UHGV virus genome: UHGV-0331106
Length of the DNA stretch: 38,151 nt
Direction: 5' to 3' (one strand)
DNA from: a virus
Both the position numbers and the translations under genes were made by a program. Shown here piece after piece: positions 4,399-5,015 of the stretch (positions within the stretch are counted from its first letter, which is position 1; each line of letters opens with the position of its first letter). Below the pieces are notes generated by a model. The model saw only the letters and a list, made by a program, of their open reading frames with translations. It was not told the origin of the DNA and did not search any database.

Positions 4399-5015
4399 AT
4401 GAAGAAAAAAAAATTGTAACAATGATGATTGCTGGAATACTGGCGGCATCCATGACAGCTTGTAGTAATAATTCTTCCGAAATGGATTCGTTAAAAAGAG
4501 AAAACAAGGAATTAAAAGCGCAAATAGCAGAATTAGAGAAAAAAGCGCAGCAAGAAGAAACTTCGGATTTCTCCGATTCCGACCTTGAGAGCAAACAAGA
4601 AGAGCAAAACAAAGTATATGGTTTGAATGAAACATGGACTGTTGATGGTTTATGGTCTTTAACTTTTACTTCCGTTACTCAAACAGAAGAACGTAATCAA
4701 TATTCAGATAAAACGCCAGCTCAAGTTATTTATCTAAATTACGATTATGAAAATATCGGTTATCAGAATGACCTTCAAGACTTATTCATTGGCTCTACTT
4801 CGTTCCAAATTATAGACAGTGCCGGAGAGATTGCTGAAACCTATCCATTAACTTCAACGACTTACCCGCAGCAGATTCCTGTAGGTGCAAAATGCGTTGG
4901 CGCGCAAGAGTGTATTGCTCTGAACAATGCGAGTGGCAACATTAAAATAATAGTCTCTTTGTATGATAACAATTATACAGAACACACTGCAACATTTGAG
5001 TTGCCAGTTCAGTAA
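4399..5015 (+). CDS. lipoprotein (superinfection-exclusion-like position); N-terminal signal-peptide codons are out of frame at an A9 tract, in-frame ORF as given starts at 4422
   Basis: SD GAGAGG is 8 nt before the ATG at 4399. With 10 A (or 7 A) the product reads MKKKKIVTMMIAGILAASMTAC, with a lipobox Cys. The ATG at 4422 has no SD. Confidence 0.6.

Follow-up and report, generated by a model that had tools for sequence, protein, structure and literature searches.

The window, i.e. the whole stretch of 38,151 nucleotides of the virus genome UHGV-0331106 that was analyzed, most probably carries (with a probability of roughly 78%) a temperate-phage lipoprotein gene in which a slipped-strand poly(A) on/off switch is set to OFF, this allele being genuine and heritable. 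This reading, drawn from sequence comparisons, relies on the frame logic of the tract, its heritable A7–A10 polymorphism on identical backgrounds, the stability of an interrupted tract and the purifying selection acting on the body of the open reading frame (ORF).

The proposed mechanism can be viewed as follows. The lipoprotein gene would begin at ATG 4399 and its Lys-rich n-region would be encoded by an uninterrupted poly(A) tract, which would gain or lose single A's through slipped-strand mispairing during DNA replication. With A7 or A10, a single frame would run from the start codon through the hydrophobic core and the lipobox Cys into the mature protein (ON); with A8 or A9, translation would end after 21 or 6 codons, respectively (OFF). 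The tract would thus act as a stochastic and reversible on/off switch. As the gene lies within a lysogeny operon (cI-like, M78 peptidase, lipoprotein, int), its expression is expected in lysogens.

The A9 tract, its reading frames and the start codon

The 5' end of the gene comprises the following features:

4383–4390, plus strand: Shine-Dalgarno-like sequence GAGAGAGG, 8 nt 5' of ATG 4399, kept in every related locus
4399–4404, plus strand: ATG and AAG (Met-Lys, AAG at 4402–4404), predicted true start of the lipoprotein precursor
4405–4413, plus strand: A9 homopolymer, the hypermutable stretch; ON (in frame) with A7 or A10, OFF (out of frame) with A8 or A9
4417–4419, plus strand: TAA, stop codon of the mini-ORF MKKKKL* (6 codons) formed by A9, 2 nt 5' of ATG 4422
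4422–5015, plus strand: lipoprotein gene body, 197 codons plus stop; lipobox SMTAC, Cys codon at 4461–4463

As read from the sequence, GAGAGAGG is followed by 8 nt, ATG (4399–4401), AAG, A9, TTG, TAA, CA and ATG 4422. The ON and OFF frames were defined by in silico translation of each tract length from 5 to 12. A9, the state of the window, gives MKKKKL* (6 codons) and is therefore OFF; A8 gives MKKKNCNNDDCWNTGGIHDSL*, a peptide of 21 residues. A7 (MKKKIVTMMIAGILAASMTAC...) and A10 (MKKKKIVTMM...) are both joined to the ORF 4422–5015, the N-terminus of which is MMIAGILAASMTAC. The product of these two forms starts with MKKK(K)IVTMMIAGILAASMTAC..., a complete predicted lipoprotein signal peptide. 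The Gram-positive pattern of the G+LPP type (Lys/Arg n-region, h-region, lipobox Cys), used as the lipoprotein test, is matched by the A7 and A10 reconstructions and by the natural proteins of 204 and 205 aa. The 197-aa form starting at ATG 4422 retains the h-region and the lipobox and fails this pattern because the Lys/Arg n-region is missing. In its A7 and A10 forms, the gene product is thus a predicted substrate of signal peptidase II, i.e. a lipoprotein precursor.

These results bear out three claims of a preliminary description of this DNA. It had stated that A9 puts the N-terminus of a lipoprotein signal peptide out of frame, and translation does stop at TAA 4417–4419. It had pointed to a strong Shine-Dalgarno (SD) sequence before ATG 4399, which is GAGAGAGG at 4383–4390 and is conserved. 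It had also proposed that A7 or A10 restores the lipoprotein signal, and proteins exactly identical to the 204-aa (A7) and 205-aa (A10) products are found in public assemblies.

The A9 run by itself is not unusual in the window, where three such runs are observed versus 2.84 expected from shuffles. It is distinctive by where it lies: it falls at codon 3, follows a conserved SD and precedes an ORF in which nothing but the n-region is missing.

Several comparisons indicate that ATG 4399 is the real start of the lipoprotein gene. Almost all full-length homologues (35–99% identity) start with M-[KR]-[KR]-K followed by a hydrophobic stretch and [AG]-C, and the Cys and the preceding A or G are kept across homologues. 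The alignment with phrog_806 covers the whole length from residue 3 of the repaired protein, N-terminus included. The SD before 4399 is conserved in all the close loci and in the sister lineage. Another start, in the main frame 5' of 4422, was considered and rejected: this frame is open from 4380 but contains no ATG, GTG or TTG, its sole candidate being ATT 4413, which lacks a suitably placed SD.

The TAA-CA-ATG geometry of the A9 form, together with the h-region and lipobox kept by the 197-aa form, might suggest reinitiation after the mini-ORF, with ATG 4422 as the start of the 197-aa ORF. Its signal, devoid of n-region, would then allow partial export and A9 would correspond to a 'low' rather than an 'off' state. 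Termination-reinitiation at 4422 is conceivable for A9 alone: A8, although equally common, reads through 4422 and thereby closes this route. Moreover, no SD comparable to GAGAGAGG precedes ATG 4422, and a Lys/Arg n-region, without which the 197-aa form does not match the lipoprotein pattern, is found in every homologue. This explanation is thus very unlikely.

The lysogeny module, the IS110-family insertion and the form of the phage

The neighborhood of the gene in the window includes the following features:

1452–1697, minus strand: cro-like gene
1856–2203, plus strand: gene of a cI-like HTH_3 protein
2172–2729, plus strand: gene of an ImmA/IrrE-like M78 peptidase
2776–4383, minus strand: IS110-family element of 1608 bp; transposase at 2919–4094, with DEDD_Tnp_IS110 and Transposase_20 domains
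5218–6300, plus strand: tyrosine integrase gene, directly 3' of the lipoprotein gene

The order HTH, M78 peptidase, lipoprotein, int is found in the window and in all the related prophage loci. The gene had been described as lying between the repressor gene and int; its location in the lysogeny module beside int stands, but its direct 5' neighbors are the M78 peptidase gene and, in the window, the IS110-family insertion. No terminator was found on the plus strand between the lipoprotein gene and int. A terminator-like hairpin present on the minus strand only (5060–5087, 12 bp including 8 GC pairs, then a T run) would halt antisense transcription coming from the int side.

The IS110-family element sits 15 nt 5' of ATG 4399 and parts the lipoprotein gene and its SD from the cI-like and M78 peptidase genes; its junctions share a 2-nt overlap (AG). 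None of the related loci read carries this insertion, and its junction with the gene was not found in IMG/VR. Given its distance of 15 nt from the ATG, the gene is probably cut off from the operon promoter in the window. A TATAAT sequence at 4375–4380 points toward the lipoprotein gene. The bridge RNAs of IS110 elements are located in the non-coding stretch 5' of the transposase gene, which here spans roughly 290 nt (4095–4383). The search of Rfam over 2600–5300 detected no family, whether of riboswitches, leaders or described IS110 bridge RNAs.

Past the int stop codon (6300–6340), the sequence around 6318–6340 resembles a tRNA gene at its 3' end, with GGATGACAGGAATCGAACCCG as a T-arm on the minus strand. 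The identity between the window and the prophage loci ends at 6338, where the prophage loci continue into host DNA and the window into lysis genes. The window would therefore be an excised or circular form of the phage. The 6300–6340 region looks like an attP site, which suggests a tRNA gene as the integration site of the phage. Arrays of an 18-nt tandem repeat with a super-period of 54 nt occupy the two ends of the window (1–88 and 38014–38151), and multiple offset BLAST matches indicate that the copy number differs among related loci; the contig is probably broken in, or circularizes through, this array.

Other observations concern the mosaicism of these elements. In eight loci (L002, L004, L013, L014, L015, L027, L109 and L110), the integrase is shortened to 304–352 aa and two large serine recombinase genes follow on the opposite strand, about 1.7 kb 3' of the lipoprotein gene; the 3' end of int appears to be the site where another mobile element has inserted or recombined. 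The prophage family carries two immunity cassettes, encoding HTH pairs of 107/67 aa or 115/81 aa (L001 versus L002, upstream 2.5 kb), and the downstream 1.65 kb is identical in 20 loci below alternative cassettes. A second 5'-proximal A9 (28601–28609, minus strand) covers, in frame, codons 3–6 of a 57-aa Cys-rich ORF (MHRKKKRIESHWDHPVICPGCGKE..., 28444–28617) that begins 4 nt past the stop codon of the preceding 449-aa ORF.

Variation of the tract length among related phages

Tract lengths were collected by DNA pattern scans that did not select for frame. Viral contigs displayed A8 (four contigs) and A9 (two), and metagenome contigs A7 (four), A8 (three), A9 (two) and A10 (one). Twenty independent contigs encode exactly the ORF of the window, half of them with A8 (10) and half with A9 (10). 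Different lengths are also found in isolates: A9 in GCA_001405315.1, A8 in GCA_047231385.1 and A7 in the strain that encodes WP_415934974.1.

Contigs carrying each form of the protein were counted by exact-protein look-ups. For the allele of the window (G172), 60 contigs encode an ON form (29 for A7 and 31 for A10), versus at least 1,758 encoding OFF forms (at least 1000 for the 187-aa form, 705 for the 196-aa form and 53 for the 197-aa form); this allele is therefore OFF in about 97% of the contigs and ON in 3%. The G172D allele is ON in 41% of its contigs (520, all A7 form, versus 426 + 332 + 4 = 762 OFF). Rare ON variants carry an interrupted tract (MKQKKIVT and MKKRIVT).

The relationships between tract lengths and backgrounds were examined on 44 loci with 4.0 kb of flanking sequence, the tract being masked; loci of the ON form were fetched in addition. 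Since much of this sample was picked by protein form, its ON/OFF proportions are not population frequencies. One cluster (8 differences or fewer per 4.0 kb) contains all of A7, A8, A9 and A10. Pairs of ON and OFF loci without any difference were found for A9/A10 (L001 versus L100 and L101) and for A9/A7 (L007 versus L111). The cluster of the window (9 differences or fewer) includes 10 loci with A7, four with A9 and one with A10, and a third cluster carries A8 in all of its 11 loci.

As the series 7-8-9-10 is found within one cluster, changes by single steps require both ON-to-OFF and OFF-to-ON events, and under this single-step assumption the need for both directions holds whichever state is ancestral. 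The tract thus shows two of the features that characterize simple-repeat contingency loci: it is a coding repeat the length of which sets the frame (A7 and A10 in, A8 and A9 out), and this length varies recurrently and in both directions among otherwise identical genomes. The slipped-strand variation that the preliminary description had listed among its options is strongly supported by the occurrence of A7 to A10 among near-identical phages of other human gut samples and by the zero-difference ON/OFF pairs, and replication slippage would be the mechanism behind the changes. The tract length also carries a clear phylogenetic signal. Since lengths are bound to clusters, switching must be fast relative to SNPs but too slow to scramble lineages; the cluster-specific lengths (A8 in 11/11) suggest a moderate switching rate.

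Sequencing error, which had been put forward as another option, would imply that the true tract is A10 or A7 and that A9 is a miscall. Homopolymers are indeed a classic site of errors, the coverage of some related contigs is very low (1.7–2.8x), and two low-coverage loci (L044 and L047) show extra ORF disruptions that are possibly errors. However, several projects have yielded A9, in over 14 independent assemblies that include NCBI isolate genomes. Without the IS element, the window shares 99.9–100% identity with L008 and with L013, the latter being the NCBI isolate assembly GCA_001405315.1 of [Ruminococcus] torques, and both, which differ from the window at 1–2 positions over about 4 kb, carry A9; more generally, the nearest relatives (0–3 differences over about 4 kb) have A9 too. 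The tract length is consistent within sequence clusters, a pattern that random errors would not yield, and other coding A7–A8 tracts are nearly invariant in the same contigs. As the closest relatives carry A9 and the length follows the cluster, this highly improbable explanation is effectively excluded.

Control tracts, sister lineage and distant relatives

In the same contigs, two coding control tracts are nearly fixed (18:1 for A8 at 1509 and 30:1 for A7 at 5229). A non-coding tract at 5193–5200, located 9 nt 5' of the SD of the integrase gene (GAAAGGAAG, then ATG 5218), has the A8 form in 39 related loci and the A7 form in eight. Part of the variability would therefore be the plain mutational behavior of long A runs, for which selection need not be invoked, and the long A runs of this phage appear to be intrinsically mutable where selection allows. 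The length of the 5193–5200 tract varies independently of that of the lipoprotein tract; it might affect the expression of int or a possible N-terminal extension starting from ATG 5173.

A sister lineage (P0018, 779 index blocks) encodes a protein with 89% amino-acid identity and the same N-terminus, but with an interrupted tract (AGAAAGAAA), MRKKF being written as ATGAGAAAGAAATTT. All 10 P0018 loci that were read are in frame, and no tract frameshift was found in any sister-lineage locus read. The 187- and 197-aa calls from this lineage (P0032 and P0035) were suspected to be tract frameshifts, which was ruled out by four loci (L048–L051): a 23-nt deletion takes out the SD in L048, L050 is in frame, and L049 and L051 are recombinants that join a window-type 5' end (A8) to a sister-type gene body. 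Among 46 distant relatives found in species-representative genomes, A runs do not exceed 7 and are mostly interrupted, and a tract-caused frameshift was found in none (0/46). The tract is therefore not a conserved design feature. The exact tract context was absent from the contigs of GTDB species-representative genomes in a pattern scan, and these representatives apparently do not harbor any phage of the window type. Comparison of the ORF body with the sister lineage gives a dN/dS of 0.19, which indicates a real gene under long-term constraint.

These data bear on two other explanations. According to the first, A8 and A9 would be the working state and programmed recoding, i.e. RNA polymerase slippage or -1 frameshifting, would provide the lipoprotein at a set low level. 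A slippery sequence, the heptamer A_AAA_AAA, is present at the frame junction in A9, and a -1 shift on it would yield exactly MKKKKIVT..., the product of A10. Furthermore, OFF lengths dominate for the allele of the window, yet the ORF is intact. Transcriptional slippage becomes significant at nine A or T in many bacteria, and A9 in Thermus dnaX and A8–A9 in IS elements are productive (PMC1088944). However, the out-of-frame layout is not conserved, since the sister lineage and the 46 distant relatives are in frame, mostly with interrupted Lys codons; A8 and A9, both common, call for opposite corrections; and no stimulatory RNA structure was detected 3' of the tract (fold of 4414–4500 versus shuffles, z = 0.28). 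The prophages have diverged very little, which accounts equally well for the intact ORF. An evolved recoding programme is unlikely because the layout is not conserved, the corrections are opposite and no stimulatory structure was detected. Some unprogrammed leakage is likely to remain; it might proceed by RNA polymerase slippage or by -1 ribosomal slippage, transcriptional slippage on A9, the third option of the preliminary description, being plausible by analogy with the known systems.

The second explanation is plain pseudogenization: the gene would be dispensable in this prophage lineage and the tract would be a neutral mutational hotspot without any switch role. The OFF state of about 97% of the contigs with the window's allele fits the loss of a dispensable gene as well as a switch, the nearby non-coding A8 tract is variable too, the IS110-family element also parts the gene from its operon in the window, and the combined ON fraction is near the chance expectation of roughly 1/3. 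Conversely, ON forms reappear on OFF backgrounds without a single flanking difference, 41% of the contigs with the G172D allele are ON, additional inactivating mutations are seldom seen in the thousands of contigs, and related prophages retain an intact gene under constraint (dN/dS of 0.19). As the lineages are very young, these counterarguments carry little weight, and pseudogenization, although doubtful, deserves serious consideration beside the slipped-strand switch.

The encoded protein

The gene body encodes the h-region and lipobox, a coiled-coil helix (about 4473–4556), an acidic disordered linker and a beta-sandwich of the DUF4352/YcdA type (about 4611–5012). In the AlphaFold model (mean pLDDT of 82.7), the helix covers residues 18–45 and is followed by the disordered acidic linker, and the beta-sandwich extends over about residues 64–197 with a pLDDT mostly above 90. 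The best match among solved structures is the lipoprotein YcdA of B. subtilis (4r4g, E 6e-4), and the best viral fold matches are phage proteins annotated as DUF4352, DUF5067 or lipoprotein, the TM-scores of the fold matches being modest (0.3–0.5). The UniRef entry of the 187-aa form is named DUF5067 protein. The Pfam search returned no DUF4352 or DUF5067 match at E <= 1, only coiled-coil noise, and NCBIfam only coiled-coil or lipoprotein-leader noise below thresholds. PADLOC gave no match for the protein. No record of the phage database spans the gene; the matches there cover only the end of the IS and short segments of beta-sandwich genes. The predicted product is a surface protein anchored in the membrane and composed of a coiled coil and a beta-sandwich.

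Comparison with known systems

The closest precedent is inlA of Listeria monocytogenes (Orsi et al. 2010, PMC2831843), the 5' poly(A) of which is a reversible gene-inactivation switch that varies about 1000-fold above the point-mutation rate. Both cases involve a surface-protein gene of Firmicutes with an A-run in the first codons, within the Lys/Arg-rich n-region of the signal peptide, where a frameshift leaves a peptide of a few residues. Length changes in inlA recur and far outnumber point mutations; lengths recur here too, and comparison of the loci suggests that they change faster than SNPs. However, InlA is an LPXTG protein, whereas the gene described here is a phage-borne lipoprotein gene of a lysogeny module, and in contrast with inlA, four lengths (A7–A10) are found in natural populations.

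The contingency loci based on simple sequence repeats (SSR) in Neisseria, Haemophilus, Campylobacter, Helicobacter and Mycoplasma are similar in that a 5' coding homopolymer toggles the frame of a surface protein and that genomes with no other difference carry either ON or OFF alleles. Likewise, the poly-G switch of a Bifidobacterium breve pilus relies on a 5' homopolymer toggling the frame of a surface-exposed protein (PMC9187656). The locus described here differs from the SSR contingency loci by its host, a gut Lachnospiraceae, its prophage carrier and its poly(A) of only 7–10 nt, and is known from assembled sequences. The systems based on A9/T9 slippage (Thermus dnaX, IS elements, Shigella mxiE; PMC1088944) are alike in that the frame is recovered when the mRNA contains an additional A, but here the DNA itself varies and the frameshifted layout is not conserved in relatives.

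The preliminary description had also noted that superinfection-exclusion lipoproteins are typically found at such a position. The Ltp-type exclusion lipoproteins of temperate Streptococcus thermophilus phages (TP-J34) adjoin int (PMC3952083). In both cases, a prophage lipoprotein gene lies by int in the lysogeny module, is presumably expressed in lysogens and encodes a protein that would be tethered outside the membrane. No homology with Ltp was detected, as the protein has no significant Pfam match (E <= 1) and no PADLOC match. Pfam covers the Ltp family and the Ltp fold is helical, whereas the coiled coil and DUF4352/YcdA-like beta-sandwich of the protein described here belong to another fold class. 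A possible role in superinfection exclusion is thus proposed by analogy of position only. A DUF4352 domain has been linked experimentally to mycobacterial phage defense in Mpr of M. smegmatis (PMC12596739). The likeness with the DUF4352/DUF5067 lipoproteins (YcdA, phage DUF4352 proteins and Mpr) is at the fold level only, and Mpr differs by a nuclease/nucleotide-binding partner domain that the protein described here does not have.

Biological significance

The switch mechanism itself is ordinary and of a well-known kind. Homopolymer phase variation is well studied in pathogens; to our knowledge, few cases have been documented in gut Firmicutes or in genes from the lysogeny modules of their phages. 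Switching of the tract may be selected rather than merely tolerated. It can be speculated, tentatively and with more doubt than confidence, that the tract is a selected contingency locus of a temperate phage. The lipoprotein of the lysogen would then be toggled ON and OFF, with some leakage through RNA polymerase slippage, hedging protection against superinfection versus a display cost, e.g. immune or phage recognition. If true, an exclusion or surface factor encoded by a phage would undergo phase variation through an SSR in a prevalent human gut Lachnospiraceae bacterium, visibly so across thousands of metagenomes.

This [Ruminococcus] torques prophage protein is very common, and thousands of assemblies list it in 'frameshifted' or N-truncated forms of 187, 196 or 197 aa; these annotations stem from a real mutable on/off site. 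The natural A7–A10 alleles found on identical backgrounds, isolates included, would provide a ready isogenic series for probing the role of the lipoprotein.
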